IMG/VR virus record: IMGVR_UViG_3300037346_000419
Location: 17,327 to 81,326 of that record
DNA length: 64,000 bases
Direction: 5' to 3' (one strand)
From: a virus
Under the pieces are notes generated by a model. The model had not been told where the DNA came from, ran no database searches, and saw only the letters and a list, made by a program, of their open reading frames with translations. Position 1 is the first letter of the stretch; each line of letters opens with the position of its first letter. Made by a program: the position numbers and the translations under genes. Of the stretch, positions 1 through 36,141 are shown in pieces.

Positions 1-2333
1 CTAGTTTTTTTATAAATGATACCAGGACCTGAAAATTTACCTTCTGATTCATCTAAGAAAACTTCATAAGGTTTATTATTTAATAATCCTACAATCCATT
101 TATAGACATGTCCTTGTGAGTGGCTTATAAATGCTTCTCCTTCTAATTCTCTAGGTCTTTTTATAGCATCATGTTCTTTAAAAGCAACTTCATCTTTAAT
201 ATCAGTATTAACTAATACACCAGTTCTACAGCCATCTCTATAAACAGTTACACCTTTAAGTCCCATTTCCCAAGATTTCATATAGATATTTGCTACTTCT
301 TCTTTAGTTACGGTATTTGGTAGATTAATTGTGGAGCTTATTGCACTAGTAGTATATTTTTGTAAAATACTTTGCATTTTAACTCTTTTTGTCCAATCAA
401 TATCATTTGCTGTGCTACCATACCAAGGTGACACTTTGAAATATAGTTCTAAAGAATCCTTAGTTAAAGCTTTTACATAAAGGTAAGCATTTTCCTTAGT
501 TTTATTAGTACCTTTTAATAAAGGATTAACATCAAAAGCTACTTCATTTTGAATTTGTATAATCATCCAATCTTTAAATTTAGGATGTAAAACAGAATAT
601 TCTGTCCAAGAATCTTTATTTTGGTCAATAAAATCTATTCTAACTCCTTCTTCTCCTGGATTAACTTTCTTTCTCCTAGTATAAAAAGGCATAAATAAAG
701 GCTCACAACCAGATGTTGTTTGAGTCATAATTGAAGTTGTTCCAGCAGGTGCAATTGTATTCCAATTTACATTTCTTCTACCATATTTCATCATTCTTAA
801 CTTTTGCTCTGGAAATTCTTCTATAAGCATTTGATAAAAATCATTTGCACCTTGAGTTTCTTTATCAGAAAAAATATTGGTGAATTCTAAATTTTTATCC
901 CAACCTTTAAAAGGTCCTCTAAGAATAGCTAAATCAATACTACAATCAAGTTCTGCCTTCATTTTTGTATGCATTACAAGTTCAACAGTATCTAAAGCTA
1001 CTTCTGAATCAAATTTTAAATTTAAAGCAGCTAACATATCTCCTAAAGCAGTTATACCACATCCAACTCTTCTACCTGATTCTGCAATATCTTTAACATT
1101 TAACCATAGAGTTTTTTCAATAGCTTTTTCTTCTTCAGGTAAATTATCAGATTCTATTTTTAATAGAATTCTTTCAATATACTCAATTTCTAAATCAACT
1201 AAATTATCTCCTTGTCTCATCATTTCATAAGTGATTTTATATAATAAATCATAGTCAATTACAGCTTCTTCAGTAAATGGGTTTTGTACCATATTAAATA
1301 GATTTAATAAAATTAATCTACAAGTATCATAAACTGCCATTGGCTGTTCTCCACAAGCATTTGTTCCATCAATAAAATATTTAGAATACACAGAGGAAGG
1401 GTCGTAATTAATAACTCTATCCCAGAAAAATAGTCCTGGTTCTGCATTTTCCCAAGCATTTTGTACAATTGCATCAAAATACTCTTTTGCTCTGATTTTT
1501 TTAGCATATATTTTAAAATCTAATGAAGAATCTTGTATTATTGTCAGTGTATTATACTCTAAATCCTCTCTTTGACATTCTACAATTTCAGAATTTATAT
1601 CACAAGGAAATCTAAGAATATAATCCTCATCATTTTTTACAGCTTCAAAAAATTTATCTCTTGTTTTTACAGAAATATTAGCTCCTGTAATCATAGTTCT
1701 ATCAATTTTTGAATTGATAAAATCTAAACTGTCAGGATGATTAATATCAATATCAAGAAGACAAGCTCCTCTTCTACCATCTTGAGCTACTTCTCTTGTT
1801 GAATTAGAATATCTTGACATAAATGATACTGGACCTGTTGAAGTACTTGAAGCATTTTTAACTTCAATTCCTTTTGGTCTAATATTAGAAATACCTAATC
1901 CATAACCACATCCTCTTTTAGCTGCTGATATCAGCATTGTGTCAGTGTACATTATACTAGAATAAGAATCTTTAGGTGGTGGTAATCTAAGGCAATTACT
2001 AAGGCTTCTATAACCTTCTTTATAACCTAAAGATGCCATAATTCTACCTTGTGGTACAATGTATTTAAAATCTTTAAACATATCAAAGATTTTTTCTTCT
2101 GTTAAAGGTATTCTTTGTAAAGCATAATCAGACATAATTTCTAAGTTAAAAGAAGCATCTTCATAATAATTTTTTTCTTTTTCAATATACTTAGATTCTA
2201 CTTTAGCAAATTCTTTTGCTAGTCTTCTGTGCATGTCATTAGGTGTTATATCATTTTCTTGTGCATATTTATTAAGCCACACATCTGAAGCTAATTCATC
2301 ATTATTAAAATATTCTAATAATTCTTTATTCAT
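1..2333 (-). CDS. nrdJ: Ribonucleotide reductase, class II (adenosylcobalamin-dependent) type; 3' end runs off the window
   Basis: Absent from the ORF track, apparently because it has no stop inside the window. Manual translation from ATG 2333 gives MNKELLEYFNNDELASDVWLNKY...PQGRIM...SLSNC...AQDGRRGA...TGANISV...GTNACGEQP...DTCRL...IAPAGTTS...TTSGCEP, which are RNR catalytic motifs. No beta subunit seen in the window. Confidence 0.9.
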   Translation of the reverse strand, partial: MNKELLEYFNNDELASDVWLNKYAQENDITPNDMHRRLAKEFAKVESKYIEKEKNYYEDASFNLEIMSDYALQRIPLTEEKIFDMFKDFKYIVPQGRIMASLGYKEGYRSLSNCLRLPPPKDSYSSIMYTDTMLISAAKRGCGYGLGISNIRPKGIEVKNASSTSTGPVSFMSRYSNSTREVAQDGRRGACLLDIDINHPDSLDFINSKIDRTMITGANISVKTRDKFFEAVKNDEDYILRFPCDINSEIVECQREDLEYNTLTIIQDSSLDFKIYAKKIRAKEYFDAIVQNAWENAEPGLFFWDRVINYDPSSVYSKYFIDGTNACGEQPMAVYDTCRLILLNLFNMVQNPFTEEAVIDYDLLYKITYEMMRQGDNLVDLEIEYIERILLKIESDNLPEEEKAIEKTLWLNVKDIAESGRRVGCGITALGDMLAALNLKFDSEVALDTVELVMHTKMKAELDCSIDLAILRGPFKGWDKNLEFTNIFSDKETQGANDFYQMLIEEFPEQKLRMMKYGRRNVNWNTIAPAGTTSIMTQTTSGCEPLFMPFYTRRKKVNPGEEGVRIDFIDQNKDSWTEYSVLHPKFKDWMIIQIQNEVAFDVNPLLKGTNKTKENAYLYVKALTKDSLELYFKVSPWYGSTANDIDWTKRVKMQSILQKYTTSAISSTINLPNTVTKEEVANIYMKSWEMGLKGVTVYRDGCRTGVLVNTDIKDEVAFKEHDAIKRPRELEGEAFISHSQGHVYKWIVGLLNNKPYEVFLDESEGKFSGPGIIYKKT

Positions 2334-2616
2334 GAGTCCCTAAAATTTCATCATAATTAATAAGACTATATGTATGAATCTCTTTTTCAGAAATTTTATC
2401 ATGTTTTATGATATTACTACCTGAATAAGAGCTTATAAAAATTTTGTCTCCTTCTTTTACACCATTTTGTGGACATTCATTTCCTAAATTTAAAACAGTC
2501 CTTGTAATTTCAAACAAGTCTTCATCTGTTTCTTTTACATTATCCAATAGAATAATGTCTTTCTTTTTTTTAAGTGCTATAGTTTTAATTAGCACATTTT
2601 TTCCTATCGCTTTCAT
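2326..2616 (-). CDS. groES: GroES-like co-chaperonin
   Basis: MKAIGKNVLIK...VKEGDKIFISSYSG...LINYDEILG matches the Cpn10 pattern. Start at 2616 is preferred because a TAACTTTG promoter box lies at 2629-2636. Confidence 0.7.
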   Translation of the reverse strand: MKAIGKNVLIKTIALKKKKDIILLDNVKETDEDLFEITRTVLNLGNECPQNGVKEGDKIFISSYSGSNIIKHDKISEKEIHTYSLINYDEILGTHE

Positions 2617-2644
2617 TTTGTGAACTTGCAAAGTTAATATAACT

Positions 2645-4671
2645 TTACATATTTAAAAAATACAATTCATGTTTTGCTCTAGTTCTTGCAACATACTTTA
2701 AGTTTTGCTCTTGTTGTAGTTGCTCTTTACTTTTAGCAAATTTTGAAGGTATTAAATTCTCATTTAGTATATAAACTACATCAGATTCCAAACCTTTTGA
2801 TTTATGAATTGTACATAGCATTATACCATTTTCTTTTTCTTCAAATAGAGATTTTAATTTCTCTAATAAAACACTAACTAAATCATAGTCTCCACAAAAA
2901 TGCTTATATAATAAGGTAAAATTATTAAGATTCTCTTTAAAAACATAAAATTTAATTTTTCCTTCTTCAGAATAATCTTTTTCTAATTCTTCTGTTCTAT
3001 AAGTCATTTCAATAAAAGCTTGAGTAACTGTGTTTGTGGAATAAGCTTTTAAAAATCTAATTAAAGAATTTAAAATGTCTTCTCCTTTTAAATATACATT
3101 TTTATCTTCAGCTAACAACTGAAAATAAAGCTCTATTAAAGGATTTGTATTCCTGCAAATTACCATTGCTCCATTTTGTATCAATTTATAGTCAGTTATA
3201 GTCTTTACAATACCTTCTGAAGAATTAAAAGGTGTCATTACATCATAGACTTCATTTGCTTTCTTTATAATTGAGTCATCGCATCTGTAACAAATATCTA
3301 AAGGTAATTGTTTTACATTTGGTTTAGATAAAAATAAATCAAAAGAAGAGGTTGAAGCCCCAGAAAAACCATAAATAGCTTGATTTTTATCTCCAACACA
3401 AATAAATCTTTTAACTGATTGTTCAATTAACTTATCTACAATTTTATGTTGACAAATATTCAAATCCTGACATTCCGTTTTTTTGTATAGTTTTAAAACA
3501 TGATAAAGATTAATTATTATCATTATACTATACCTTATACTTTCATATAAGACTAGACTATATCTTAAAAATTTCTAATTTTACATTTTTAATATTTAGA
3601 TTTTTTATTGTATGAGAATTTATCCAATTTCTTTTGTAAGTATTCTCCCTTTTAGAATCATATATATGCTGAGATAATCTTGCTTTTAAACTTGTGCAAG
3701 TTACCCCTACATACCTTACTTCTAATGTTTCTGGATTTTTTAAAACATATATTAAAAACTCTCTTTGTTTAATATTTTTTATTCTCTACATGTTAAATCT
3801 TGTGTTATGCAAAAACAGTAATTTTTCTCCCCGTTTCCAAATAAAATAATCAATTTTAAATGTACGTATTTCTACTAGTCGTTGAACCTTACCCATTTTA
3901 AAAGGTCTTGGCTGCTGATTGCCTATTTGACATCTCAATTATTTTTAACATTCACACTTATCTTTTCAGATTATGTTGTAGTTAATTGAGCTTTAAGGTA
4001 TTCCAGCAATTAAAGGAGTTTTAAGTGAACTAAATTTAATCCACCATTAGATAATGAGGATATATTGGAATTTGAAGGCTTTTTACAACTGGTAAATAAA
4101 TCATATCATTAAAATCTATTAAAACTAAGTTTGATTCATAACTAGCATTTCTTAATTCTAAAAATCTTTGCCATAAAACTTTTAAATCAGGTGTGATAAC
4201 TAAACTTTTATCCATAGTTATAAAACAATCTCTAATAGATTCTACATCATCAATTAAAAATAATCTAGATATATCATTCATATCCATTAAATCATAACTC
4301 ATTTTAAGTTTATCTTTCCAAACTAGCTTTTTAAATATTCTTTTATTTTGAAATTGTAATTTTTTAATTAAACTAAAATTTTTACCATTATCTATTTTTA
4401 TATTCTTATAACTATTTCTTATTGCACTTAAACCTAAACTATGAATTGTCATAGCTTTTCCTTGAGTTAAATTTTTACTTTCTATTTTATTTTGAATTTC
4501 TTCTTTGATTGATTTATTAAAAGCTAAAAAAAGAGTTTTTTCTTGACAATGTTCTAATAACAGTAACAAAGTGGTAGTTTTACTACCACCTGCTACAGCA
4601 TTTATTAAAATATTACAATCTTCATTATTCCAAACATCTAAAATGTTTTGTTGTTTTTCACTTAGAATCAT
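2645..4671 (-). CDS. UvrD/Rep-like SF1 helicase split by a group I intron (exons 4671-4039 and 3475-2645; ~487 aa spliced)
   Basis: Exon 1 has AVAGGSKTT, LAFNK, TIHSLG and ends LMVD. Exon 2 starts ECQD and has VGDKNQAIYGFSG, CYRC, TIHKSKGLE, YVARTRAK. Splicing restores Walker B VDECQD. Confidence 0.9.
3476..4038 (-). mobile_element. Group I self-splicing intron (563 nt) in the helicase
   Basis: The 5' exon ends in U (GTGGAT) and pairs with IGS GTTCAC with a terminal U.G pair. Core elements are present: AATTGCTGGAA (P), AATCAGCAGCC (Q), GTTCAACGACTA (R), AAGATATAGTCT (S). The intron ends in G. Confidence 0.92.
3558..3791 (-). pseudogene. Degenerate GIY-YIG homing endonuclease remnant inside the intron
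   Basis: M*RIKNIKQREFLIYVLKNPETLEVRYVGVTCTSLKARLSQH...: GIY-YIG N-terminal motif with a stop at codon 2, truncated at 78 codons, located between the R and S elements. Confidence 0.75.
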
Positions 4672-4787
4672 TTTTTAATATTTTTATAATTTCTTCAATT
4701 TCAAACTTTTCATCAGTACCTAACCTATCAGACCAACTTACTAAGTTTTCTAATCTTTCGATACCTATTTTTACATTTTTTGGCATA

Positions 4788-5036
4788 TTATAATATTTCT
4801 ATAGTTAAATGAACCCATTCATCAATTATTTCAACTTCTGTTTTAACTTTATCTTTAAAAGTAACTATAACTTCATGTTGAATCTGTCTAGCATCTTCTA
4901 TATCAATTCTTGATGCTTTTTCTCTTCCTACATCTCCATTTTCTCTGGTTATATAAGTTATTGTGTTTTCATCTGCATCATCTAAATATAGATTAGTCAT
5001 TAATGTATCAATGAACTTTTTTATATCTTCTTTCAT
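4788..5036 (-). CDS. Hypothetical protein
   Basis: 82-aa ORF in a tightly packed minus-strand gene run. Confidence 0.6.
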   Translation of the reverse strand: MKEDIKKFIDTLMTNLYLDDADENTITYITRENGDVGREKASRIDIEDARQIQHEVIVTFKDKVKTEVEIIDEWVHLTIEIL

Positions 5037-5272
5037 GGTCTTTTTTTAAGTGCTAAAGCAAATCCTCTTTTATACCCATCTTTATAGGTATCTTCATCTA
5101 AAACAATCATTGGACACATTGGAACAATTCCTAAAAAAGTACAATTATATTTATCAAAACACCAACCTTCAGTATAACCTTTTTTAAATCCTTCACAATA
5201 AGTTCCTGTTGTGTTATAAGCGTTTATATTTAACATATAAACGCTTAAACATATTAATATTAATTTTCGCAT
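5033..5272 (-). CDS. Small secreted Cys-rich hypothetical protein
   Basis: N-terminal signal-like segment and YxxG(F/Y) repeats. Confidence 0.55.
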   Translation of the reverse strand: MRKLILICLSVYMLNINAYNTTGTYCEGFKKGYTEGWCFDKYNCTFLGIVPMCPMIVLDEDTYKDGYKRGFALALKKRP

Positions 5273-6204
5273 AATTTTTTTATTTTAGCATATATTTCAG
5301 TCCAAGTTGGTAAACCCATAATACACTTATCATCAATATAAACATCTGCTGAAATTTTTCTACAATCTGCTCCAAACTTTTGAATAAGATGTGGCATATT
5401 ACAATTTATATAATCATATTGTATGTCATTTTTATCTAAAAAAGCTATTGCAGCTCGTATTGTTGAAAATCTTTTCATATCATCTTTATAATTTTGAGTA
5501 TTACAAGCTTTTACTGAAAGTATATCACCATTTAATGAAGAAATCCAATAATAATAATCTTCCTGATAAATTGAATTTTGTCTTACAAGCATTTCTAAAT
5601 AACCTTTCCAAGTTACATAACCTTGAGCATCAGTTCCTGTTATATTAAAGTAATCTGCAACTTCACTAAAGTGTTCTTCTTTTATATTACTTATTTTCTC
5701 TATAGCTTTTCCATCATATGTTCTAAATAAAAATTTATCTAATAACTTAATAGAATGACCATCATTATAAAACATCATATGCTTTTGATTTTCAGCTTTA
5801 CCAATATAAAAATTTCTTATATAATCACAATCCTTGATGATTTCACCAACAGTAAATACTACACCATCTGACAATCTTTTTATAGAGTGAATATGATGGG
5901 AAAAATTTGAATTTAAATAATATTCTGCATTATATAGACCATCTCCTTTTCCATAAAAGCTCATTAATCCACTCACAGGATTAAGTATATAATGACCATT
6001 ATATCCATTTATTTCTATTATCTCATAATCTTTTTCAACAACTTTTTCCCAAAATTCTGGATTGTTTTCTACTAAATGAGAAGAAATTTCTGAAAACGTA
6101 CCACTTCCATTAAAATTGTAAATATTTCTACCTTCTAAGAAATTTACTACAGTATTTAATTTAACACTTCCTGGATATTTTTTAATTAATTTATATTTTT
6201 TCAT
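5260..6204 (-). CDS. Mosaic hypothetical protein with a C-terminal HAD-phosphatase-like fragment
   Basis: The C-terminus YDYINCN...RKISADVYIDDK...LPTW resembles the C-terminal half of small Bacteroidota HAD hydrolases. No N-terminal DxD motif. Confidence 0.55.
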   Translation of the reverse strand: MKKYKLIKKYPGSVKLNTVVNFLEGRNIYNFNGSGTFSEISSHLVENNPEFWEKVVEKDYEIIEINGYNGHYILNPVSGLMSFYGKGDGLYNAEYYLNSNFSHHIHSIKRLSDGVVFTVGEIIKDCDYIRNFYIGKAENQKHMMFYNDGHSIKLLDKFLFRTYDGKAIEKISNIKEEHFSEVADYFNITGTDAQGYVTWKGYLEMLVRQNSIYQEDYYYWISSLNGDILSVKACNTQNYKDDMKRFSTIRAAIAFLDKNDIQYDYINCNMPHLIQKFGADCRKISADVYIDDKCIMGLPTWTEIYAKIKKLCEN

Positions 6205-9054: not shown

Positions 9055-9948
9055 TTAAAAAGGTAAATCTATTGGATTAATACTATTAGTACTGCTAGAA
9101 TCAATAGGGTCAATTCCAGCTATATATGCTGGATGAGGTAGATTTATATTATTAATATCATCAGAAAGATTATTAGATATTATATCTGAATTAAAAAAGC
9201 TATTTATTGCATCACTATTTAAATTCATTTGAAATAACGCTTTTTTAATTTCTTTAAGTTTACTTCTTTCTGTGTCTCGAAATGACAAAACAACTAAATT
9301 TTCTTCTTTACAAAAATCAGATAATATATCATTTTCAACTATATTGTTTAATTCTGTTATACTATTAAAATTTTCTTCAAAACCTTTTGAAAACAACTCT
9401 TCATCTATACTTTTTGTACTTTTAAATTGTACTGAAATACCTTTTTCATAACAACTATTTATTAAGTCTTTTTCTACTTTTTTATAAAAACTTTTATATA
9501 TAGGATTTAATAAAAACTCAGTTGCTACAAGTAATTTAAAATATTTATATATGGGGACATCATTATCAAAAATTTGGTTTCTTTCATAATTTTTACAACA
9601 CAAAATTAATAAGATGTTTTCTTTATCATCTAAAATAGAATAGTGACCTGAAGAAATTTCAACATCTTTCCCTTGAACTTTAAATCCATATTTTCGTATT
9701 CTATCTTTATATTTAAAGTTTTTTAAAAATTCACTATAAGTTTTTGTTTTATAAAATCTAATACTTAAATGTTTATAATAAAATTTAATATCAGTTAAAA
9801 CAGGAAGAAAAACTGAGATGTTAAAAGGGCTTATATACATAGTATCATCACAAATTGTATAATAAGGCATATATTCTCCCAAACTTTTCACTCCTATTTT
9901 TAAAATATCAGGGTGTGCTTGAGCATCATAAATTTTGTCTATAATCAT
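9055..9948 (-). CDS. Hypothetical protein coupled to the E1 gene; C-terminal DLPF tail
   Basis: 297 aa, 4-nt overlap with the E1 stop codon. Confidence 0.65.
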   Translation of the reverse strand: MIIDKIYDAQAHPDILKIGVKSLGEYMPYYTICDDTMYISPFNISVFLPVLTDIKFYYKHLSIRFYKTKTYSEFLKNFKYKDRIRKYGFKVQGKDVEISSGHYSILDDKENILLILCCKNYERNQIFDNDVPIYKYFKLLVATEFLLNPIYKSFYKKVEKDLINSCYEKGISVQFKSTKSIDEELFSKGFEENFNSITELNNIVENDILSDFCKEENLVVLSFRDTERSKLKEIKKALFQMNLNSDAINSFFNSDIISNNLSDDINNINLPHPAYIAGIDPIDSSSTNSINPIDLPF

Positions 9949-10631
9949 GATATAACATTTGTATATGTGACTGGAATAAAAAACTCATAAAAAAATGGTA
10001 TATCCCTAACTTTTTCTCTTTCATGAATATTTGTTAAATGATTTGTAAAAAAAGCTGTCATTAAAGAACCTATCATTGCTGCACAATGACTTGTCTGTTT
10101 TAATGTGCATGGTGCATCTTCTACTTCATCATCATCAAAAAGATATTTTTCATACTCTTCAATTTTATCTGGAGTCACACAAAATATTTGTAATTGTTCT
10201 AATTCCAATCTACCATCTATGAAAATAGGAGTTACAGGACAATTAGGAATACTTTTTTTCCAAACTTCAAACATATCTTTTCTAGCTTTCATATTATCAA
10301 AAGCAGAAAACATAAAATAATGTGTAGGAGAATTTCTATCAATTTTTTCATTAAAAATATGAGGTGTTTTACCACAAAATTCATAAATAATATTACTAAT
10401 AGCATTTACTTTTGGTATGCCTAAATCTTTTACTTTAAACATTTGACCTCCCATATTATGTTCTTCTATTAAATCATCATCATAAATAACACAATTATTT
10501 CCTATTCTACTAAGAAAAAAACTTAACCATGTGCCAATACCTCCTGCACCCCCTATCATTACTGTTTCAGGATTTTCAGAAAACCATAAAGCATCTTTAA
10601 ATCTATTATACTGCGCTTCCATATTCTTCAA
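9945..10631 (-). CDS. ThiF/E1-like ubiquitin-activating (adenylating) enzyme
   Basis: IGGAGGIG, YDDDLIEEHNMGGQ, PKVNA, SAFDNMKAR, FIDGR, and APC with a candidate catalytic Cys. Confidence 0.88.
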   Translation of the reverse strand: MKNMEAQYNRFKDALWFSENPETVMIGGAGGIGTWLSFFLSRIGNNCVIYDDDLIEEHNMGGQMFKVKDLGIPKVNAISNIIYEFCGKTPHIFNEKIDRNSPTHYFMFSAFDNMKARKDMFEVWKKSIPNCPVTPIFIDGRLELEQLQIFCVTPDKIEEYEKYLFDDDEVEDAPCTLKQTSHCAAMIGSLMTAFFTNHLTNIHEREKVRDIPFFYEFFIPVTYTNVIS

Positions 10632-11856
10632 ATTTTTGTAAGAAAAACTTTATTGCTAATTTTATTTTACTAACAACTTTATATTCTATTTCTAACTCTT
10701 CAAGTTCTTCAACTATACGATTTGTAATGTAAATAAAATTTTCATCGTCTTCTTCTTCTGTAAACATATTTTTATATAAAGGTACAAAATTCTCTAATAT
10801 TTGTCTACAAATTTCTTCTATTTTTACTGCTCCAATTGTCACATTTAATTCTAAATCTTCTAAAACATCATCAATAGTTTTTGTATCATCTTCTTTAGTA
10901 TTAGTATAATTTAATAAAGCATAAATAAAATCTTGTATTAAATCTAATTCATCTTCTTCTAAAAAAGTATCATTATCAATTTCTTCAAAATCTATGTCAT
11001 CAACAAATTCTTGAAATAAATCAATTTGTTTTTTATTTGTAGTGACAACTTTTGTTAAAGGACTATTAGGAATTATAGGATTATTTGGGATAATGTTTGC
11101 AAAACCTTTAATAGGATTTCTATTTTGAGGAGGAAAAGTTTGAACATAAATAGGTTTTTCAGCTTTCTTTATAATAGCTTCTACTCCTTCTTTAAATTCT
11201 TGATTAACTATTATTTCTTCTTGTTCAGATATAATGTCACAATTATAAATAAATAATTTTTCTTTTTTAAATTTTAAATCTTCTTTAGATATTGTATATT
11301 TTTTACCATTTTCATCTAAAGAAATATATGGTGTTTTTGTAATATCTTTTTGTATAGCTCCTCTAAAAGCAACTTTAGCTTCAAAATCCATATAGTTATT
11401 TACTATTAAAGAAAGATAAAAATTGTGAGAATCTGAATTATCATTTAATTCACTCATATCTGTTCCAGAGAAAAAAACATTCATTGTATTGTGGCTATGT
11501 ATATGCCCAATTTTCCAATTCATTCTTTCTTCATCTTTCATCATATAATCTACAAATCTATTATCAAATTCGTATTCTGTAAAAGCTTGTGTGCCTTTAT
11601 CCATTGGTAAAATATCTCTTATAATAAGAAGCATATTTTCGGGTTTTCTTATAGAGCCTATTATTTCATAAAATAATATTCCTGACCACTCTACCTTTGC
11701 TATTTTTTTACACAGGTACTTGATTTTGAATAATATTTCTTTGGATATTTCTAATTTTATTCTCTTTTCTAATTGCTCTATTGACAACGACTTGTTTATA
11801 TAAATGTTGTTCGAGGGCATTACTTGCGGATTTTGTGTATTTTGGTAATAATTCAT
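10606..11856 (-). CDS. JAB/MPN+ (JAMM) metalloprotease with acidic C-terminal region
   Basis: EWSG followed by HIHSHNTMNVFFSGTD, which fits the JAMM motif E...HxH-x7-S-x2-D. Confidence 0.85.
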   Translation of the reverse strand: MNYYQNTQNPQVMPSNNIYINKSLSIEQLEKRIKLEISKEILFKIKYLCKKIAKVEWSGILFYEIIGSIRKPENMLLIIRDILPMDKGTQAFTEYEFDNRFVDYMMKDEERMNWKIGHIHSHNTMNVFFSGTDMSELNDNSDSHNFYLSLIVNNYMDFEAKVAFRGAIQKDITKTPYISLDENGKKYTISKEDLKFKKEKLFIYNCDIISEQEEIIVNQEFKEGVEAIIKKAEKPIYVQTFPPQNRNPIKGFANIIPNNPIIPNSPLTKVVTTNKKQIDLFQEFVDDIDFEEIDNDTFLEEDELDLIQDFIYALLNYTNTKEDDTKTIDDVLEDLELNVTIGAVKIEEICRQILENFVPLYKNMFTEEEDDENFIYITNRIVEELEELEIEYKVVSKIKLAIKFFLQKFEEYGSAV

Positions 11857-12949
11857 ATTTTACTTTTATTTCTTCTTTTGTTTCTTGTTTTTTTTCATAA
11901 ACTTTAAAATCTATAATTTTACTTCTAAAAATTATAGAAGGAATTAAATTTTGATTTTTCAAATCTTTATTTATTTCTTTTACGTTTTCTTTATAATCAT
12001 CTTTATTAAATTGATAGTATATATCTTCTATTTTTGTTACAATAAGATTTTTTATATTGTCATAATCAAACTTTTTAATTATATTTATTATTGTGTTTTT
12101 AAAATTATCATTTATTATAAATTTAAGACTTCTATTTTGTACTATAACACGTAAATTTTTTATATCATTCTCATTTATATTTTTAATTAATTGAATATTT
12201 ACTATATTAAACATATTTTTAGCATCAGTTCTATCTATTGATATACTACTACTTTCTGCATTTGTTATAACATCTCTCATTTTTATATGGGGGCCACCTT
12301 CTAAGGATTCCCAAGATAAATAGTTATCTAAAGTAATAATAAATAATTCAAATGCTTCAGGAGTACATTCATTTCTATTTATAGATATTATATCAGAAAT
12401 TTCACTTTCTCCATAACAAAAACTTGAACTATAAAAATTTTTATTATATTTATAACTCATTGTATTAGTATGAGAGTGTCTATAAGCATTGTGAAATTCT
12501 TGTTTATTAACTGATAATCTAATACCTTTAAAATCTTTAAAAAAGATGGATGAAGTAAATTTATGTATAGGTAAAACTATTAATAAATCTTTTATAAGAT
12601 GTTCTTCTTCTACACTATTTTTAATTGTGATAGAAGGATATAATATAAAAATATTTATTTGTATAGAATTTATTAAAGTATTATCTTGCTTATTAGAAAA
12701 ATTATCTATAATACTTAAATTAATATCCCAATTATCTTTATGATGTGCATTTAAAATTGGAGTAATTAAATTTATAAAATTAGAAAATCTTATTTTATTT
12801 CTAACCCCTATACCACATACATAATCTTTTTGTATTAAAGTTTTTAAAAAATTTATGTCTCTTGATTTTCCTGATTTGTTCCAATTATTGCATAATTTAA
12901 TAATTGTATTTTCATAAGTAGTTCCTATTGTGTTTATATTTAACTGCAT
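11708..12949 (-). CDS. Prokaryotic E2-like (ubiquitin-conjugating) domain protein
   Basis: YRHSH...SSSFCYG followed by a helix and WESLEGGP, like the E2 H-P-N/H...C core. Lies between the Ubl and JAB genes. Confidence 0.6.
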   Translation of the reverse strand: MQLNINTIGTTYENTIIKLCNNWNKSGKSRDINFLKTLIQKDYVCGIGVRNKIRFSNFINLITPILNAHHKDNWDINLSIIDNFSNKQDNTLINSIQINIFILYPSITIKNSVEEEHLIKDLLIVLPIHKFTSSIFFKDFKGIRLSVNKQEFHNAYRHSHTNTMSYKYNKNFYSSSFCYGESEISDIISINRNECTPEAFELFIITLDNYLSWESLEGGPHIKMRDVITNAESSSISIDRTDAKNMFNIVNIQLIKNINENDIKNLRVIVQNRSLKFIINDNFKNTIINIIKKFDYDNIKNLIVTKIEDIYYQFNKDDYKENVKEINKDLKNQNLIPSIIFRSKIIDFKVYEKKQETKEEIKVKYELLPKYTKSASNALEQHLYKQVVVNRAIRKENKIRNIQRNIIQNQVPV

Positions 12950-12957
12950 AATTTTTT

Positions 12958-12977
12958 AAAGGGGTGTTTCCACCCCT
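12958..12977 (-). terminator. GC-rich hairpin (terminator/attenuator) between the Ubl and E2 genes
   Basis: AGGGGTG-GAAA-CACCCCT-TT on the minus strand, with a GNRA loop and a short U tract. Confidence 0.6.
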
Positions 12978-12992
12978 ATCTAATTTGTTTTT

Positions 12993-13652
12993 TTAAAAAC
13001 CTTTATTAATTTCTGCTAATTCTCTAGTTAATCTTTCAGTTTCTTCTCTGTCATCAATAGCTGCTTGGGCTGACTCAGAATTACTATAAGTTTCAATTAA
13101 ATTTAACACTCTGTTATATTTTCTTGAATCTACTAAGTCTTCCCAAGCTGTTGTCAAATCATTTTTATCAATTACTAAAACAACTTCTGCTAGATTATTC
13201 TCAACAGAAAGAATAGCTAAAGAAGATTGAGAAGGACTAATTTGTTCTGAAACTGCTTCTGGCTCTGGAGTTTGAGTTAAATTGTTAAAATAGTTTTTTA
13301 AATCTAAAGTTGAACATTGTGTCCAACTAACTTTACAGTTGAATTTAGCCACTCCAATTTTATCAGCAGGACTTAGTTGATTTCTTAAATCATTATAATT
13401 CATATTGTTATAATCTACTCCAGATTTAGTTTTAATAGGACTGATAAACAAAGTAAAAGCTGTAGTAGGCAATATTGCTATACTACTTTCTAAACTTGTT
13501 CTATTTACACTTTCTAAAGCTTTGAATTGATTCATATCAAATCCTTTATTTTCTACAACACTTTTCAATTCACCCCAAGTTGTTGCTGATGATTGAATTT
13601 TAATTTTTTCACCTTTTGTGGTGAATATGGTGATTTCTCTTTCGTTACTCAT
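12993..13652 (-). CDS. Ubiquitin-like (beta-grasp) domain fused to a C-terminal extension
   Basis: Residues 1-78 follow ubiquitin topology (EITIFTTKGEKIKI, TWGELKSVV, FTLFISP) and end KTKSG. Confidence 0.7.
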   Translation of the reverse strand: MSNEREITIFTTKGEKIKIQSSATTWGELKSVVENKGFDMNQFKALESVNRTSLESSIAILPTTAFTLFISPIKTKSGVDYNNMNYNDLRNQLSPADKIGVAKFNCKVSWTQCSTLDLKNYFNNLTQTPEPEAVSEQISPSQSSLAILSVENNLAEVVLVIDKNDLTTAWEDLVDSRKYNRVLNLIETYSNSESAQAAIDDREETERLTRELAEINKGF

Positions 13653-13691: not shown

Positions 13692-14726
13692 TTATAGAAG
13701 ATTTATATTTTTATCTCTTAAAAAATCTATTAAATTTTGTTTTCCTTTATTTTCTATTAAATCTGATGCATCTGAAATTTTATCTTTTAATAAATTTTCA
13801 TTTAACCATATTTTTTCTATATTATTAATACCTAATGATATTAATAAATCATATAGTTTTATAGAAGCTTTTATTCCAGCTTTATCATTATCAAAAAAAA
13901 TAATAATTTTATTAAAAGAATTTAATAAATTTTTTAATATTTCCTTATCAGGAAACATTCCTTCATTTTGAAACCAAATTACATTTAAATTTAGATTTTT
14001 TAATACTCTATAATCTTTATAAGATTTAGTAATTATTATATTATCTGAATTATTATCTATGAAATTTATTCCCCCAATATCATTATTATCACAATTAGTT
14101 ATAAATTTTTTAACTTTTTGCTCAGGTCTATAGATTTTCTTTTTATTATCTTTAAAATCTGTATAGCAATAACATAAATCGATGGGTCTAACAGTTATAT
14201 CTCCTTTTCTTGTATTCAATAGTTTGAATTTTTGAATTGGAAAAACTTTATCATCTATTAAATTTTGTTTAGTAATTTCATAAGGAGTCCAATAAAGACC
14301 ATCTATTTTACTGAAATTTCTTGTTGCAATTAGAATCTTAAAATCTTTTTTAATAACATTGACTTTTTTGACTTTTTTTACAACTGGTTTTATAACAAAA
14401 TTTTTATTTTTTATGATATTTTTATTTATAAAAGCTAAAGTTTCATAAAAATTCTTTAAATTGTATTTTAGTTTGATTGCATCAAAACAATCAATTTTTA
14501 GATTATCTGCATAATCAACAAATCTTAGGGTGTTAGCATCTAATTCAAACCAACACCCTGGATTTGTATCATCTCTAAAAGGAGATATGATATATTCAAA
14601 TTCTATAGGTTCAAAACCAAATACATAAGCAAATATATCTTGTTCAGATACTTTATTAAGTATAGATTCTTTACTAATAAAACCTTTAACTTCTATATTA
14701 TCTGTTATTTTATCATAAATAGACAT
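13692..14726 (-). CDS. dnaG: DNA primase (DnaG/Toprim)
   Basis: SPFRDDTNPGC N-terminal region, IITKSYKD, FFDNDKAG, SDASD. Confidence 0.85.
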   Translation of the reverse strand: MSIYDKITDNIEVKGFISKESILNKVSEQDIFAYVFGFEPIEFEYIISPFRDDTNPGCWFELDANTLRFVDYADNLKIDCFDAIKLKYNLKNFYETLAFINKNIIKNKNFVIKPVVKKVKKVNVIKKDFKILIATRNFSKIDGLYWTPYEITKQNLIDDKVFPIQKFKLLNTRKGDITVRPIDLCYCYTDFKDNKKKIYRPEQKVKKFITNCDNNDIGGINFIDNNSDNIIITKSYKDYRVLKNLNLNVIWFQNEGMFPDKEILKNLLNSFNKIIIFFDNDKAGIKASIKLYDLLISLGINNIEKIWLNENLLKDKISDASDLIENKGKQNLIDFLRDKNINLL

Positions 14727-15811: not shown

Positions 15812-16885
15812 TTAATATGTTAGTAATTTTTCAATTATAAAATTGTAGTCATTATCAATTATAGGTTCAAATAGTTCCATTGGACTTCTAACTGTATTAA
15901 AACCATCATTTTGAGTTTCTAATATATATTTTGATTCACTATTTTCTTTAATAACTTTGGCATAAAGTACAGTTTCATATTTACCTTCAAGTTGCATTTT
16001 AGTTGCCATATTACCTAAAGTTTTCAATCTATATCTCATGTCATTTCCATGTTTATACTCTTCAAGATGTGCTGTTAAAATAGCATATCTCTCTTCTTCA
16101 AACATATTTTTTGATAGTCCCATTTTTATGTGATTTGTAATATCATCATAAGTTTTAGGTATTACATGATAGGGTATTATAGGGTTATTTTTTTTACCAT
16201 ACTCTTCTTTTCCTCCTACCCAAACAGGATTCTTATTATCTGCATTAAACCATATATTAGTTTTACTAGGTAGTGTTCTCATACCAGTACTTTTTCCTGT
16301 CTTTATATTCTTTTAAGTTCGTTACTTCTTAAAATGTTCTCTAATGAACTACTTGTATTCTCACACAAGAATAGACTATATCTTTATCCTATAAGGATAA
16401 TCCCCTTTTCCACCCACTTGGGTGTACAGCTTCCAACAGCTTAGTCGTTGAACCTTACCCTTATTATTTTCATAACTTAGAGTCTTGGCTGCTGATTGTC
16501 ACATAATAAGAAATTTTCAAACATTCATAGTGTAATTTCTTCACTATTGTAGTTTTCTTATCTTCGAGATATTCCAGCAATTAAAGGATTTCATTATATA
16601 GATTACTCTATATAAGGGCTATATTTTAAATATTTATTGTATTTTCTATCTAAATAAATTGTAGCATTATCAAATATACAATAATTAATTAACATAACCT
16701 GGACTACCCACAATTAGAATTGTTTCAAAACCTAAAGATTGTAAATCAGATTGTAATTGCCATATTGACATACCATAGTCTTTCCACTTATCGTGTCCTG
16801 GCTTTTTTAATGAAGTCATGTATTCTTCATTTTGAATACCTGTTAAGGTATCAATACAGACTGTTCTTATTTTTGTTTCATTCAT
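15812..16885 (-). CDS. AAA_24/Sak4-like P-loop ATPase split by a group I intron (exons 16885-16697 and 16300-15812; ~225 aa)
   Basis: Splicing joins LIVGSPG to TGKSTGMR and restores Walker A GSPGTGKS. The C-terminus has AH...KTLG...ETQNDG..T.RSP..LF...IDND. Confidence 0.85.
16301..16696 (-). mobile_element. Group I self-splicing intron (396 nt), no ORF
   Basis: The exon ends in U (CCAGGT). P AATTGCTGGAA, Q AATCAGCAGCC, R GTTCAACGACTA and S AAGATATAGTCT are present, with terminal G at 16301. Confidence 0.92.
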
Positions 16886-20270: not shown

Positions 20271-22268
20271 TTAATGGCAATCTGCATAATTTAAACCCCA
20301 ATCCATACTAATATTAATTTCTACATTTAACTTAATTTGTTCATTTGTTTCTATAATACTTTTCTCTAATATTTTTTCCATTTTTTCTTTTTTATCTTTT
20401 TTACATAAAAGTAATATTTCATCATGATACTGTAAAAGTATATTCATATAATTAGTATCTAATTTATTTTTTACATTTCTAACCCAAGTATCAAAAAAAT
20501 AAACTCCTGCACTCTGATTGAGGGTCGAAAATTTATCTTTATCTGCTTTAAGAAAATAATAAAAACCACTAACAGGGTTATATAACCATTTTTGTTTTTG
20601 GTTTATTACTACATATTCTTTTTTATAAACTTTATTACCTTTTTCATCTACAAAATCTAAAACTAATTTTTGTACCCAATTTTTACTATCAACTATTATT
20701 ACTTTTGTGTCTTTTGCAGTCTGTTTAACTGCTTTATTTCTTTCCCAATAAGTTTTATGTAATATTGTAGCAAAAGCTATATCACATTTAAGTGTTAAAG
20801 CTATTTTAGCTGGGCCAGCACCATAAGTTGCAGAAAAATTAACTACTTTAGCTTTATTTCTAACAACTTTAATAATTTTTAATCTACCCTGTTCATCAGA
20901 GGTAAAAATATAAGTTTTATCTTTAGATTCACACCATTTAAAAAATACTTCATCATCTTTAGTTAGCATACCTGCTAAAACAGCTATATCAATATGAGGG
21001 TCAAATCCTGGTACTCTCATTGCATTTACATAATCAGGGTCATAAAAATATATAAAATGCTGTTTGGTATTATCCTCTAAACCACTAACATCACTACCAC
21101 ACATAATATAAGAATCATCAGGTACTATTAAAGCCCCTCTAATTTGTTCTCCATAATATGTATTTACTTTTGGTAAATTTGATATAGGTTTCTTATGTTT
21201 TAACCTTATAGTATTAGTAAAACCTTGAGCAGAAGCATAAACTTTGTTATTTTCATCTTTATTTTCTATATAAGATTTAAATAATCCATATCTATGTTTT
21301 GCTTTATACAAACCTTCAAGAGATTCTAAATAAGGATAATCTTCAAATAAATATTTTACACTTTGACATAATCCTCCTCCAAATGGTAAAGATACTTGAG
21401 GTAAATTTTCACCTGTACTTTTACTAATTTTAAAAGTTTGAGGTTGCCAATTTAAACTAAATAACCAAGTTTGTAATTGTTTATGAGAACCTGGATTAGG
21501 TCTTTCTCTTACTTCTTCAGTTTCTTTAGGTAAATTATTCTCTTTTAAATAATCAAACCATTTTTCTCCATAATTAGATAATGTTCCATCTATTTTATAT
21601 AGTTTTTTTGGTTTAGATTTTAACAATTTACCTAATTCTTTTGGCATATTTAAAGATAATTCTTCTATTTTTTCTTCAATTTCAAACTCTAAGTTTAACA
21701 TTGATTCTTGAATTAAATTAATATCTAAATCAATACCAATACTTTCTTGGTCTTTTAAACAAAGCATTTTAAAATTTAAGTAAGAAAACACTCTATTTAT
21801 TTTATCTAAATTTCCATAGACATTCATAGCATAATCCATTTGATAGTGGAACAATCTAGTGTTTATTTCAACATCAGATTCACACCTATTAATATAAACA
21901 GCTACTGGTTGATTTCCCCAATCAGTTATTTTAGGTTTTAAAAAACCTAATCTTTCTCCCCAAAATTCTAAACCATGTTTGAAACCTTTTACAGGATATT
22001 GATACCAAGATATAGCTAGAGTATCATATACTTTATTAAGAATTTTAATATTTAATATTTTTTCTAAAGCTGGTATATCATATCTTATAATATTATGTCC
22101 AACTAAAATATAATCTTTTTGTATAAATTCAATTATATCTTTATGTAACACTAGACTGTTTTTTTCAATTAAAGTTTTGTTTTCATAAATAGCATAAGAA
22201 AAACAGTGTGTTTTAGTGATTTTATCTAGTAAGTTATCAGCTTCAATATCAAATATACAATACTTCAT
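20271..22268 (-). CDS. polA: DNA polymerase, family A, with 3'-5' exonuclease
   Basis: FDIEAD, GHNIIRYD and RCESDV (Exo I-III); GSDVSGLE (motif A), RNKAKVVNFSATYG (motif B), YHDE (motif C). Confidence 0.93.
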   Translation of the reverse strand: MKYCIFDIEADNLLDKITKTHCFSYAIYENKTLIEKNSLVLHKDIIEFIQKDYILVGHNIIRYDIPALEKILNIKILNKVYDTLAISWYQYPVKGFKHGLEFWGERLGFLKPKITDWGNQPVAVYINRCESDVEINTRLFHYQMDYAMNVYGNLDKINRVFSYLNFKMLCLKDQESIGIDLDINLIQESMLNLEFEIEEKIEELSLNMPKELGKLLKSKPKKLYKIDGTLSNYGEKWFDYLKENNLPKETEEVRERPNPGSHKQLQTWLFSLNWQPQTFKISKSTGENLPQVSLPFGGGLCQSVKYLFEDYPYLESLEGLYKAKHRYGLFKSYIENKDENNKVYASAQGFTNTIRLKHKKPISNLPKVNTYYGEQIRGALIVPDDSYIMCGSDVSGLEDNTKQHFIYFYDPDYVNAMRVPGFDPHIDIAVLAGMLTKDDEVFFKWCESKDKTYIFTSDEQGRLKIIKVVRNKAKVVNFSATYGAGPAKIALTLKCDIAFATILHKTYWERNKAVKQTAKDTKVIIVDSKNWVQKLVLDFVDEKGNKVYKKEYVVINQKQKWLYNPVSGFYYFLKADKDKFSTLNQSAGVYFFDTWVRNVKNKLDTNYMNILLQYHDEILLLCKKDKKEKMEKILEKSIIETNEQIKLNVEINISMDWGLNYADCH

Positions 22269-25028: not shown

Positions 25029-25044
25029 GTTATTTTTTATTTTG

Positions 25045-25127
25045 TGGTCAAAGCGAGAATCGAACTCGCACTCCAAATTGGAACAAGATTTTAAGTCTTG
25101 CGTGTCTACCTATTCCACCATTTGACC
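25045..25127 (-). tRNA. tRNA-Leu (UAA)
   Basis: GGTCAAA/TTTGACC acceptor stem, D arm GTGGAATAGGTAGACAC, anticodon arm CAAGA-CTTAAAA-TCTTG, long variable arm, T arm GCGAG-TTCGATT-CTCGC. Confidence 0.93.
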
Positions 25128-26884: not shown

Positions 26885-27014
26885 TAGTGAGGACAGGACT
26901 CGAACCTGCACTGCTGTTTTTACCCCAAGGTCAAGCCATTTCTGACACGGCAACCTTTATCGAAATTATTTTGGGTAGGTTGATAATTGCGTTTACCAGT
27001 TCCGCCACCTCACT
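26885..27014 (-). ncRNA. tRNA-like RNA with an expanded, non-canonical anticodon/variable region
   Basis: Acceptor AGTGAGG/CCTCACT-A, Leu-type D arm GCGGAACTGGTAAACGC and T arm GCAGG-TTCGAGT-CCTGT. The ~78-nt middle has no canonical anticodon arm. Confidence 0.7.
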
Positions 27015-31765: not shown

Positions 31766-32938
31766 ATGATAAGTAAGTGGAGTATATACGATAAAATAAT
31801 TGAAGATACAGTTCTCGATGGAGATTCTAGGTCTTGGAATACAATAGCAAGAGACATATTTAAAAGTCAAAATAAAAAATTTATTAGAAAAGATGTAGAT
31901 TTATTTAGAACTTATATAAAAAGAAAAGTTTTAAGAAATAGAAATACTATTATAGATGATACTTTAGATAAAATAAATTTAGAGGAAAAAGATTGGAGTA
32001 TAGGGTGGATAAAAGAAAAAGGTATATCTTTATTAGTTAAAAATCCTAAAGGGGGAGTAGGAATATCTCTTGAACAAATGAGAGAAGATTTTGTAAAAGA
32101 AATGATAGAGTATTCTCCTAACTATGATGCACCTATATTAGATAAAGTAGAAGAAGCTCACTTATTAACTATAGACATAGCTGATTTACATATAGGTAAA
32201 TTATCTACTATAAGTGAACATGGAGAAACATATAATGTAAGTGTAGCTGTTGACAGAGCATTGACTGCTGTCATGTCTTTAGTTGACAAAGCTAGTGGTT
32301 ATAATATTGAACAAGTATTATTTGTTATAGGAAATGATGTTTTACACACAGATAATATAAACAGGCAAACTACAAATGGAACAAATCAAGATACAGATGG
32401 CACTTGGTATGATAATTTTAAAATGGCTAGAAACCTATATGTATCTATCTTAGAATATTTAAGTCGCAAGTTTAAAGTGCATGTAGTACATAATCCTAGT
32501 AATCATGATTTTGTAAGTGGTTATATGTTAGCTGATTCAGTGTATAGTTGGTTACATAAAAATAAAAATATTACTTGGGATATATCTACTAGACATAGAA
32601 AATATTATAAGTATGGAGTTAATTTAATTGGAACATCTCATGGAGATGGTGCAGCTTTAGATAAATTACCATTATTAATGGCTGAAGAAGCTAAAGAAAT
32701 GTGGGGTACAACAATATTTAGATGTATATTTTTACATCATTTACATCACATGAAAAAATATAAATTTCAAACAGGAGCTGATTTTCCTGGAGTGACAGTT
32801 GAATATTTAAGAAGTCCAAGTGGTTCAGATAGTTGGCATCATAAAAATGGGTATCAACATGCTCCAAAAGCTATAGAAGCTTTTATTAATAGTTATAAAA
32901 ATGGGCCTGTAGCTAAATTAATACATATGTTTAGATAA
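31766..32938 (+). CDS. Calcineurin-like metallophosphoesterase
   Basis: ADLHIG, GNDVLH, SNHD, SHGD, HLHH. Confidence 0.85.
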   Translation: MISKWSIYDKIIEDTVLDGDSRSWNTIARDIFKSQNKKFIRKDVDLFRTYIKRKVLRNRNTIIDDTLDKINLEEKDWSIGWIKEKGISLLVKNPKGGVGISLEQMREDFVKEMIEYSPNYDAPILDKVEEAHLLTIDIADLHIGKLSTISEHGETYNVSVAVDRALTAVMSLVDKASGYNIEQVLFVIGNDVLHTDNINRQTTNGTNQDTDGTWYDNFKMARNLYVSILEYLSRKFKVHVVHNPSNHDFVSGYMLADSVYSWLHKNKNITWDISTRHRKYYKYGVNLIGTSHGDGAALDKLPLLMAEEAKEMWGTTIFRCIFLHHLHHMKKYKFQTGADFPGVTVEYLRSPSGSDSWHHKNGYQHAPKAIEAFINSYKNGPVAKLIHMFR

Positions 32939-35900: not shown

Positions 35901-36141
35901 ATTAGATTATGATGAAAATGGTAGTCCTATTTATGTTATTGATAAAATATATTCTATAAGATTATTAGAAGAACTTATAAGTTATTACAGAAAAGGTAAC
36001 TTTGATTTACTTTCAGCTTTATTTATGTGTTTATTTCAAGTACAAGAAGAAGAGTTAGGAATAGAGTATAATGAGAAGAAAGAAAATAAAAATGTAAAAC
36101 TACTTTTAGAAATGGCTAAAGATATGCATAAAAAAGCTTAA
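32938..36141 (+). CDS. terL: Terminase large subunit with intein
   Basis: ITGDHYFYLNY, KSRRKGY|SYK, IIEESG, FGTSGD, IGYDPV, NFDLLSA; precedes the portal gene. Confidence 0.93.
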   Translation: MEDYLEGKLDSIRNPQGIWINSSVFQEAGKEFIKKGYYCPDPWGSPAWFNFWTKERERIINGYSVGGVKITGDHYFYLNYCPIQKVENTSGHKSDKVKGFPDFWDGDYNYFWVREIARNGVVDSIYSEGGEESEKIFSLNSLEKTVALKRLFKGLHLEVKIETNFLNGGFNLIVGKSRRKGYQLPHSEVVMTPFGKKTMGDIKVGDIVSTPTGEANILEVYPQGLDDVYKVTLFDGREVRCGKEHLWKIFSQSFRKNYRQEKVVQTDFLLNEKLKTKKGYKWFLPINEKVINKNIKALPIPAYTLGCILGDGNVTKQLKISGADEQIFDNIISELGNKYYFKDSYLYNKQLKYNFTKEEIKDYKRKNLLSKFTSPFNPLFIKLKNLKLNYKSDFKYIPDVYKYHSSIEDRYKLVKGLMDTDGSINENGASTFGNVSKKLVEDLQEVLYSLGITSTLRKRKDDLFIIYINTNKNIFGIDRKINRVKNKECRKFIPIVKVEKLQQKEESSCFLLDSEDHLFLTNKYVVTHNSYKNASVGVRNYFTKPDSLTILNAYEKKFLYPKGIMTMAVSYINFINKHTGFIMPADVVSKTDHIRASYIQYQNGVRIEEGFMSEIIALTCKDNSDVNRGKDATDIIIEESGAFGTPGLLKALYSASEDCVKAGAIQTGQITIFGTSGDMEGGTADYADMYQRPEAFGLLPFNNIWDKDSYKQKVGFFHPIQWNMEGFYDSEGNSNQEDAKNLEYEARKNLIENGATSEEIQRRLQEKPTSPSEAFSAISTNNFPVVELKAQLHKVKANNWQTIKGVPVTFKHENGKLTAKPVLDGKKEPITSLHNIPINKKGCVVIYEQPVPDVPKGLYKIGYDPVRQDEGSSLAAIIVYKSKHIGTIHHSIIVAEYVGRMETPEEMDKIAETLADYYNTTIMHENEVTGVKNYFRRIKRLNLLAAQPDAVISKNIKKSKVARVYGCHMNTQLKDAGERYTKEWLLTILDYDENGSPIYVIDKIYSIRLLEELISYYRKGNFDLLSALFMCLFQVQEEELGIEYNEKKENKNVKLLLEMAKDMHKKA
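33484..34524 (+). mobile_element. Class 3 intein with LAGLIDADG endonuclease (347 aa)
   Basis: Starts QLPHSEVVMTP and ends VVTHN|S. W (EHLW), C (SSCFLL) and T (VTHN) form the class 3 triplet. LGCILGDG and GLMDTDG are the LAGLIDADG motifs. Confidence 0.88.

Follow-up and report, generated by a model that had tools for sequence, protein, structure and literature searches.

A conserved five-gene cassette of crAss-like phages that probably encodes a ubiquitin-like protein conjugation pathway

Ubiquitin-type protein conjugation in prokaryotes has been characterised as a weapon of the host against phages, in the Bil, Bub and CBASS Cap2/Cap3 systems. For type I Bub (BubAB, BubCD, BubE; formerly 6E.1), two features have been shown experimentally: cleavage by the JAB protease past a conserved glycine of the ubiquitin-like protein (Ubl), and a small homodimeric E1 together with a diverged E2 (Ye et al., 2024; PMC11601596). 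For Bil, the E2 is thought to choose the target (PMC11601596; Chambers et al., PMC10557695). Iyer et al. (2006; PMC1779556) describe phage pairs of Ubl and JAB solely for tail assembly, with neither E1 nor E2. Here we analyse a 64,000-nucleotide stretch of viral DNA ('the window'; bases 17327-81326 of the 81,326-base IMG/VR virus record IMGVR_UViG_3300037346_000419, which is about 86% complete) that contains, at positions 9055-13652 on the minus strand, a cassette of five co-oriented genes. We consider it probable that this cassette is a phage-encoded pathway of Ubl protein conjugation, expressed with the replication genes; a complete kit of this kind in a phage would be the virus side using the chemistry of the host weapon. 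In order of transcription the genes are:

12993-13652, minus strand: g1, predicted Ubl precursor, 219 residues
11708-12949, minus strand: g2, E2-like protein, 413 residues
10606-11856, minus strand: g3, JAB/JAMM metalloprotease, 416 residues, with a possible alternative start at 11820
9945-10631, minus strand: g4, minimal E1 of the ThiF type, 228 residues, with a TTG start
9055-9948, minus strand: g5, conserved fifth gene, 297 residues

A first, sequence-only reading of the window had placed four consecutive, mostly overlapping genes here and listed an unknown gene with them. The positions on the minus strand hold; the count is five, since the unknown gene proves to be a conserved member of the cassette; and the overlaps, which are 149 nucleotides (nt) for g2/g3, 26 nt for g3/g4 and 4 nt for g4/g5, do not extend to g1 and g2, which are separated by a 43-nt spacer.

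To establish how widely this arrangement recurs, we used hidden Markov models (HMMs) of g1-g4. In every locus covering the region all four genes are present, in the same order and beside the primase gene. The related loci number 35, comprising 33 IMG/VR loci (E1 identity 36-68%), phage FpV4 and phage crAss001 (gp79-gp76, with gp75 for g5), and the active-site patterns are kept across them. We conclude that the recurrence of order and motifs in 35 related loci is not chance. A search of 1.84 billion proteins with the g2 profile retrieves 3,267 cluster representatives (E up to 0.001); named homologues are called 'hypothetical protein', and none carries a Pfam domain. In the collection searched, the homologues of g1 and g5 too are unnamed or hypothetical. 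PHROG assignment puts all five proteins in families of unknown function; in GenBank the g4 homologue of FpV4 and crAss001 is labelled 'thiamine biosynthesis protein', the g3 homologue of crAss001 is labelled as a metalloprotease-domain protein, and the remaining cassette genes of the two phages are 'hypothetical'. Our literature searches (crAss-like phages with ThiF, ubiquitin, JAB or E1; phage-encoded Ubl systems), which left most subscription journals uncovered, returned no paper describing the cassette.

The first gene of the cassette, g1, divides into two parts:

13419..13652, minus strand: residues 1-78, ubiquitin-like beta-grasp domain ending K-T-K-S-G78 (AF2, Foldseek, VIA)
12993..13418, minus strand: residues 79-219, putative removable tail of 141 residues (AF2 model, alignment)

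The AF2 model of g1 has a mean predicted local distance difference test score (pLDDT) of 81, rising above 90 over residues 1-70, and its elements follow the order strand, strand, helix, strand, strand. Among PDB structures, Foldseek returns UBX, ubiquitin and SUMO with probability 1.00, target-normalised template-modelling (TM) scores of 0.66-0.72 and a root-mean-square deviation (rmsd) of 2.2-2.9 A; in VIA, a search independent of Foldseek, the Z scores are 8.3-10.1 and the top 50 rows are without exception Ub, UBL, UBX, SUMO or DIX. The beta-grasp domain ending in KTKSG that had been read from the sequence is therefore recovered, residues 1-78 ending in PIKTKSG and AF2, Foldseek and VIA agreeing on the beta-grasp. 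We conclude that a ubiquitin fold for residues 1-78 of g1 is well supported by predicted structure. At the level of sequence families g1 is an orphan: no Pfam family matches it, ThiS included, and Pfam scans of all alignment members gave scattered single matches only.

The domain ends in P-x-K-[TV]-K-[SA]-G among 24 g1 homologues, all of which have K76 and G78, and downstream of Gly78 both length and sequence vary; in two loci, L017 and L028, the open reading frame (ORF) stops one residue past the glycine and the tail is absent. Because Gly78 is invariant, the sequence that follows it is variable and two ORFs end one residue beyond it, the pattern fits a modifier made as a precursor, with cleavage predicted after the glycine. 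In the AF2 model of the tail, residues 86-126 form a small helical domain and residues 134-162 a disordered linker, with a long helix at the C-terminus. That helix ends, at the C-terminus of g1 (12993-13020), in a motif of the E-A-x-E-L-x-x-G-F type, which is kept in most lineages and suggests that the released fragment has a partner of its own. An HMM of the tail alone matches solely within g1 homologues.

The second gene, g2, has the following features:

12266-12871, minus strand: UBC/UEV-like core, about residues 27-228 (AF2, VIA)
12470-12478, minus strand: H-S-H, residues 158-160 (sequence motif)
12416-12418, minus strand: Cys178, in F-C-Y-G, residues 177-180 (sequence motif)
about residues 235-413, minus strand: C-terminal domain, fold unassigned

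The AF2 model of g2 (mean pLDDT 74.5) runs from helices through a long antiparallel sheet (74-148) to a loop with H-S-H, then F-C178-x-G, and again helices, an order of elements that fits a UBC fold. Its Foldseek matches are weak (E 0.1), with TSG101 UEV domains as the top rows. In a first VIA search, for which the caution line is Z 8, the TSG101 UEV domain was again at the top (Z 6.4 over 136 residues), followed by the Vps23 UEV domain and by BubB of the Citrobacter Bub complex (9eav_D), a top-three fold match at Z 5.2 and rmsd 3.5 A over 118 of 128 residues. In a second VIA look 131-139 of the roughly 142 residues aligned with TSG101 (Z 6.0-6.6), while UBE2L6 was at 4.8 and Cap2 at 4.5, and UEV, E2, RWD, BubB and Cap2 folds make up most of the top 50 rows. 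S159, H160, C178, E214 and S215 are identical in 150 of 150 family representatives, R144 and Y156 are further invariant polar residues, and across loci the motif is H-S-H, 9-35 residues, F-C-x-G. Sequence comparison with named families returned nothing consistent: scans of 22 g2 homologues at E up to 0.1 gave no consistent Pfam family and scattered single matches only, PADLOC has no model matching g1, g2 or g5, PDB sequences searched with the g2, g3 and g5 profiles returned chance-level rows only, and BFVD matches for g2 are solely uncharacterised proteins of crAss-like phages. We conclude that g2 is probably an E2 with a UBC fold. The E2-like HSH...FC core proposed from the sequence alone thus stands as to its motifs, while the UBC fold is matched only moderately. 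A permuted papain-like fold, in which His precedes Cys, was also considered for g2 and was provisionally dropped, none being among the top 50 fold matches.

The third and fourth genes carry the most recognisable motifs of the cassette:

11458-11499, minus strand: g3 JAMM motif, H120-S-H122-x7-S130-x2-D133, with E56 in E-W-S-G and a conserved C-terminal helical region following
9945..10631, minus strand: g4, with G-G-A-G-G-I-G at residues 27-33 and Cys175 at 10107-10109

In g3, E56, H120, H122, S130 and D133 are invariant in an alignment of 23 sequences, and of the 34 loci with the gene, 33 retain the JAMM motif; the most divergent, L034, fails the pattern. The protein matches the PADLOC JAB model at E 2.2e-7 and Pfam Prok-JAB at 13.3 bits, below the cut-off of 25. 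In the PHROGs database g3 falls into two families, whose border at residue 118 immediately precedes the H-S-H zinc motif. For g4, the match to Pfam ThiF (PF00899) is 39.6 bits against a cut-off of 28.1, as one domain over residues 23-202; NCBIfam ThiF models are the best matches in that collection and are sub-threshold, for example 44.9 against 159. Twenty-three sequences share R10, GGxGGIG, D51, D53, N59, Q63, K74, D112, R117 and C175. Cys175 lies in the context APC175TLKQTSH (family pattern P-C-[TS]-x-K-Q-T-S-H), which would place it just before the helix after the crossover region. The g4 profile finds MccB (E 3e-10), UBA5, SAE2, PaaA, TcdA, ThiF, MoeB and Cap2 in the PDB, each match being confined to the Rossmann half, and the protein has no CxxC pairs and no second domain. 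In both cases the sequence-only reading is confirmed: EWSG and HSH-x7-SGTD make the JAMM motif of g3 exact, and g4 has the GAGGIG loop, the APC cysteine and no CxxC pairs that had been noted for a ThiF/E1 protein. Judged by these residues, g3 and g4 look like active enzymes. The E1 of crAss001 (gp76) has 383 residues, of which about the last 230 are homologous to g4 and the others form an N-terminal extension.

Two points concerning the cassette are new here, namely the homology of the fifth gene across all sampled lineages and a hairpin between the Ubl and E2 genes. With an iterated HMM of g5, crAss001 gp75 is found as a homologue, and in the most distant loci g5 is homologous to the ORFs that come next to the E1 gene on its downstream side (hhalign 93.6%, E 2e-7, 148 columns); since the homology extends to the distant lineages, the cassette is one of five genes throughout the sample. 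In the g5 alignment Pro28 is the sole invariant residue, and no Cys, His, Ser or Lys is conserved. No Pfam, PDB-sequence or Atlas match was found for g5, and the ESM Atlas models for g5 and a short homologue have pLDDT of 0.31-0.33. Because conserved catalytic residues are lacking, g5 is unlikely to be an enzyme and is not a protease of the BubE type. The C-terminus of g5 (9055-9100) consists of an acidic stretch and P-I-D-L-P-F, which recalls the C-terminal tip of bacterial single-stranded DNA-binding protein (SSB). We set aside an SSB-like identity, because similar tips ending in LPF occur in only about 6 of 23 homologues and there is no fold support.

The hairpin occupies the spacer between g1 and g2:

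12960..12977, minus strand: G+C-rich hairpin GGGGTG-GAAA-CACCCC, then TTT; dG -13.2; candidate terminator or attenuator

With a strict stem-plus-T-run finder, a hairpin with T-run was found at the same spacer position in 20 of 25 related loci, as compared to about 1 expected if the finder's 171 hits in 329 kb are taken as evenly spread. Two loci not counted by the strict finder, crAss001 (dG -27.8) and L032 (dG -22.6), also have strong spacer hairpins according to RNAfold. The hairpin sequences are non-homologous between lineages; what is kept is structure and position. The T-run of the hairpin in this window is short. The element is a candidate terminator or attenuator that could allow the modifier to be made in excess over the enzymes.

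The genomic setting identifies the carrier of the cassette. The major capsid protein of the window (39698-41179) matches only Flavobacterium FpV4-like phages and crAss-like phages, and matches of the region at the DNA level are to FpV4-like phages only, at about 72% identity across 27% of the length. The G+C content of the window is about 25%, and the stretch is contained in a single public run, a metagenome from a salt lake that may be where it came from. The genes flanking the cassette are:

13692-14726, minus strand: primase, 344 residues
8656-9051, minus strand: resolvase of the RusA/PD-(D/E)XK type, 131 residues
7836-8663, minus strand: exonuclease, 275 residues

The in silico results thus support the assignment of the cassette to a crAss-like phage and to its replication module.

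From the computed folds, active-site motifs, synteny and hairpin we infer that the most likely mechanism is a cascade in which the Ubl passes as a thioester from E1 to E2 and is then conjugated. The product of g1 would be made as a precursor, and the JAMM protease g3 would cut it after Gly78, giving a 78-residue modifier of ubiquitin fold and a separate helical tail fragment. The minimal and probably homodimeric E1, g4, would adenylate Gly78 with ATP and take the modifier onto Cys175 as a thioester, from which it would pass to Cys178 of the UBC-like g2. The large C-terminal domain of g2 may stand in place of an E3, so that g2 itself would attach the modifier to lysine residues of its target or targets, and g3 may also reverse the mark. 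The fifth protein, which is translationally coupled to the E1 gene and has no recognisable active site, would be an adaptor, a regulator or a substrate partner, and the terminator-like hairpin after g1 would set the modifier transcript in excess of the enzyme transcripts. The sequence-only reading had put forward a phage-borne protein-tagging pathway; its parts list (Ubl, E2-like protein, JAB, E1) and its place in the replication module hold up in silico, conjugation itself is an inference, and no support was found for the host defence or replisome proteins that it suggested as targets.

The conjugation cascade is favoured by the ubiquitin fold and invariant Gly78 of g1, the exact JAMM motif of g3, the E1 ATP site and Cys175 of g4, the UEV, E2, RWD, BubB and Cap2 fold matches and the invariant residues of g2, the fixed gene order, the overlaps from g2 to g5, the recurrence of the hairpin, the lack of ThiS, ThiG and rhodanese, and the correspondence of gene order with type I Bub. 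Several observations weigh against it. The modifier would end in a single Gly, not in Gly-Gly. The fold match of g2 is moderate, its best Z of 6.6 being below the caution line and its Foldseek E being 0.1; no E2 sequence family matches it in Pfam (E up to 1) or among PDB sequences; and the assignment of Cys178 to the catalytic position of an E2 follows from topology, not from a residue-level superposition. As read from the alignment, the g4 family has Gly at the position of the Arg in the N-L-x-R-Q motif of ThiF/MoeB-type enzymes. Finally, no target, no E3 and, in the g5 alignment, no conserved acceptor lysine was found.

Three other explanations use the same parts. The E1 could adenylate the C-terminus of g1 for transfer to a non-protein acceptor (small molecule, nucleotide, lipid or DNA), or for a peptide-nucleotide of the MccB/PaaA kind, with g2 acting as a different UBC-like thiol transferase. 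With the E1 profile, MccB and PaaA are indeed matched better than ThiF and MoeB and are the best sequence matches in the PDB, but the E1 matches span only the common Rossmann part, and the substrates of MccB and PaaA are short peptides, not a folded ubiquitin-like domain. The seven invariant polar residues of g2 exceed the need of a plain E2, and the cassette stands among genes of DNA metabolism; a set of Ubl, JAB, E1 and UBC-like protein is, however, otherwise known from protein conjugation (PMC11601596), and we consider a non-protein acceptor unlikely. It is more doubtful still that g1 is a replication-module protein whose beta-grasp is a solubility, chaperone or interaction domain that is clipped by the JAB and never serves as a modifier, much as with proteins I and K of lambda tail assembly, and with E1 and g2 unrelated in purpose. 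L017 and L028 have no tail to clip and yet keep Ubl, E2, JAB and E1, and E1 and g2 are strictly co-conserved with g1 with their active-site residues kept; these observations outweigh the precedent of phage Ubl and JAB pairs in tail assembly without E1 or E2 (PMC1779556) and the presence in the g1 tail of its own conserved helical domain and C-terminal motif.

The 'ThiF' label implies a sulfur carrier, in which the adenylated Ubl would be converted to a thiocarboxylate donating sulfur to a cofactor, tRNA or DNA. Pairs of Ubl and E1 of the ThiS-ThiF and MoaD-MoeB type are ancestral, g4 exceeds the Pfam ThiF cut-off and its best, though sub-threshold, NCBIfam matches are ThiF models. We nevertheless give this explanation almost no credence. 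Those NCBIfam scores are far under their cut-offs; ThiS, ThiG and rhodanese were not found in the 81-kb record, incomplete as it is, in searches that were positive in control genomes, in agreement with the lack of thiamine genes noted in the sequence-only reading; the modifier is a predicted precursor that ends in a single Gly and has no Pfam ThiS match; and a sulfur carrier leaves no role for a conserved UBC-like Cys protein or for a JAMM protease. We therefore retain protein conjugation as the preferred explanation. For the wider proposal, that crAss-like phages including crAss001 run a complete Ubl cascade during infection and thereby mark proteins of the host or the phage, possibly at the replisome or to act against host defence, with a second functional fragment released from the precursor and the output tuned by a terminator, we judge the chances to be about even.

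Other features of the window were recorded outside the cassette. A group I intron lies on the minus strand at 16352-16639 (Rfam RF00028, 80.1 bits, E 1e-20), between two ORFs; it was missed by a whole-window search at the gathering threshold and was found on a short-region search. The ORF at 15812-16282 matches the C-terminal part of a Sak4-like ssDNA-annealing protein, and the ORF at 16685-16885 is taken, from its sequence, as the N-terminal part. A second gene probably split by an intron is a helicase: at 3536-4018, on the minus strand, two sub-threshold pieces of group I intron (43 and 23.6 bits) separate the ORFs at 4036-4671 and 2645-3523, which match consecutive parts (151-370 and 371-668) of the DNA helicase family phrog_1967. 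A tRNA-Leu(TAA) at 25044-25127, minus strand, was found by two tools, and a 130-nt tRNA match at 26885-27014, minus strand, which was found by Rfam only (39.7 bits), may carry an intron. At 1067 residues the large terminase (32938-36141, plus strand) is unusually long, with an N-terminal part that touches families of primases and helicase loaders. The ORF of the DNA polymerase (20271-22268, minus strand) matches only 670-1233 of the family profile and may be split as well.

An E1 related to g4 also occurs outside the related loci. The 228-kb jumbo Xanthomonas phage PhiXhv-15 (PV764602.1) encodes, within 1739-5618, an E1 that matches the crAss E1 profile at E 2e-28. The gene adjoins topoisomerase genes, and upstream of it are an 892-residue Cys-rich protein and a 141-residue ORF ending in KASGG. 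No JAB or g2 homologue was detected there, and the set may be another phage-side Ubl/E1 system.

If the conjugation cascade is real, it would be the first E1-E2-Ubl system on the side of the virus among prokaryotes. The cassette is a fixture of the replication module in a very large group of phages, which includes the cultured human-gut phages crAss001 and DAC15, and the proposal gives a testable function to five genes that are 'hypothetical' or mislabelled ('thiamine biosynthesis'). It would add Ubl and E2 families that are sequence orphans and one of the smallest E1 enzymes, and crAss001 with Bacteroides intestinalis offers a tractable system for a search for targets.

Comparison with described systems places the cassette near several of them. 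In ThiF-ThiS and MoeB-MoaD, too, a protein with the adenylation fold of an E1 is paired with a beta-grasp protein that has a C-terminal Gly, but E2 and JAB are missing from these systems, and the carriers, which end in Gly-Gly, are not synthesised as long precursors. In TAPI (Ubl) and TAPK (JAB plus NlpC/P60) of lambda and T1, as in the cassette, a phage Ubl with a C-terminal Gly is followed by a second domain and has a JAB partner; those proteins belong to the tail module, have no E1 or E2 and are not a conjugation system. PRTRC, the ParB-related, ThiF-related cassette, does not account for the genes either, the NCBIfam PRTRC_ThiF model scoring 32.8 bits against 144.75 and PRTRC_A 14.2 against 101.8. 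CBASS Cap2/Cap3 resembles the cassette in its chemistry of E1, E2-like protein and JAB without E3, and the Cap2 E2 domain is a weak fold match to g2 (Z 4.4-4.5). Cap2, however, is an E2-E1 fusion without a Ubl and conjugates the C-terminus of the CD-NTase; PADLOC models of the Cap2 type (E1-E2) touch only about 60 residues of the g4 Rossmann region, and because the cassette has a Ubl and no fusion we do not assign it to Cap2/Cap3.

Bil (BilA-BilD) has separate genes for Ubl, E2, JAB and E1, cysteines of the thioester type and no E3, as the cassette appears to have. With Bil the host defends itself by tagging tail proteins of the phage; the present cassette is phage-encoded and lies in the replication module; membership of Bil is ruled out by the family definition (PMC11601596), since g4 has 228 residues and a single ThiF domain.

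Type I Bub is the closest in layout, having the same order of Ubl, E2, JAB, E1 and fifth gene; it combines a small, single-domain E1 resembling ThiF or UBA5 with a diverged E2 and no E3, as is predicted for the cassette, and its BubB is a fold match to g2. The differences are in construction and in chemistry. Bub has Ubl-E2 and JAB-E1 fusions, whereas the window and the 35 related loci have four separate ORFs; Bub uses oxyesters on Tyr (E1) and Ser (E2), whereas the phage proteins have invariant Cys175 and Cys178; and BubE is a DUF6527 serine protease, whereas g5 has neither a DUF6527 match nor a Ser-His dyad. Bub lies in bacterial defence islands, the present cassette in a phage, and no sequence similarity is detectable between the Ubl or E2 proteins of the two. 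We conclude that type I Bub, Bil and Cap2/Cap3 are the closest known systems and that the phage cassette is a member of none of them.

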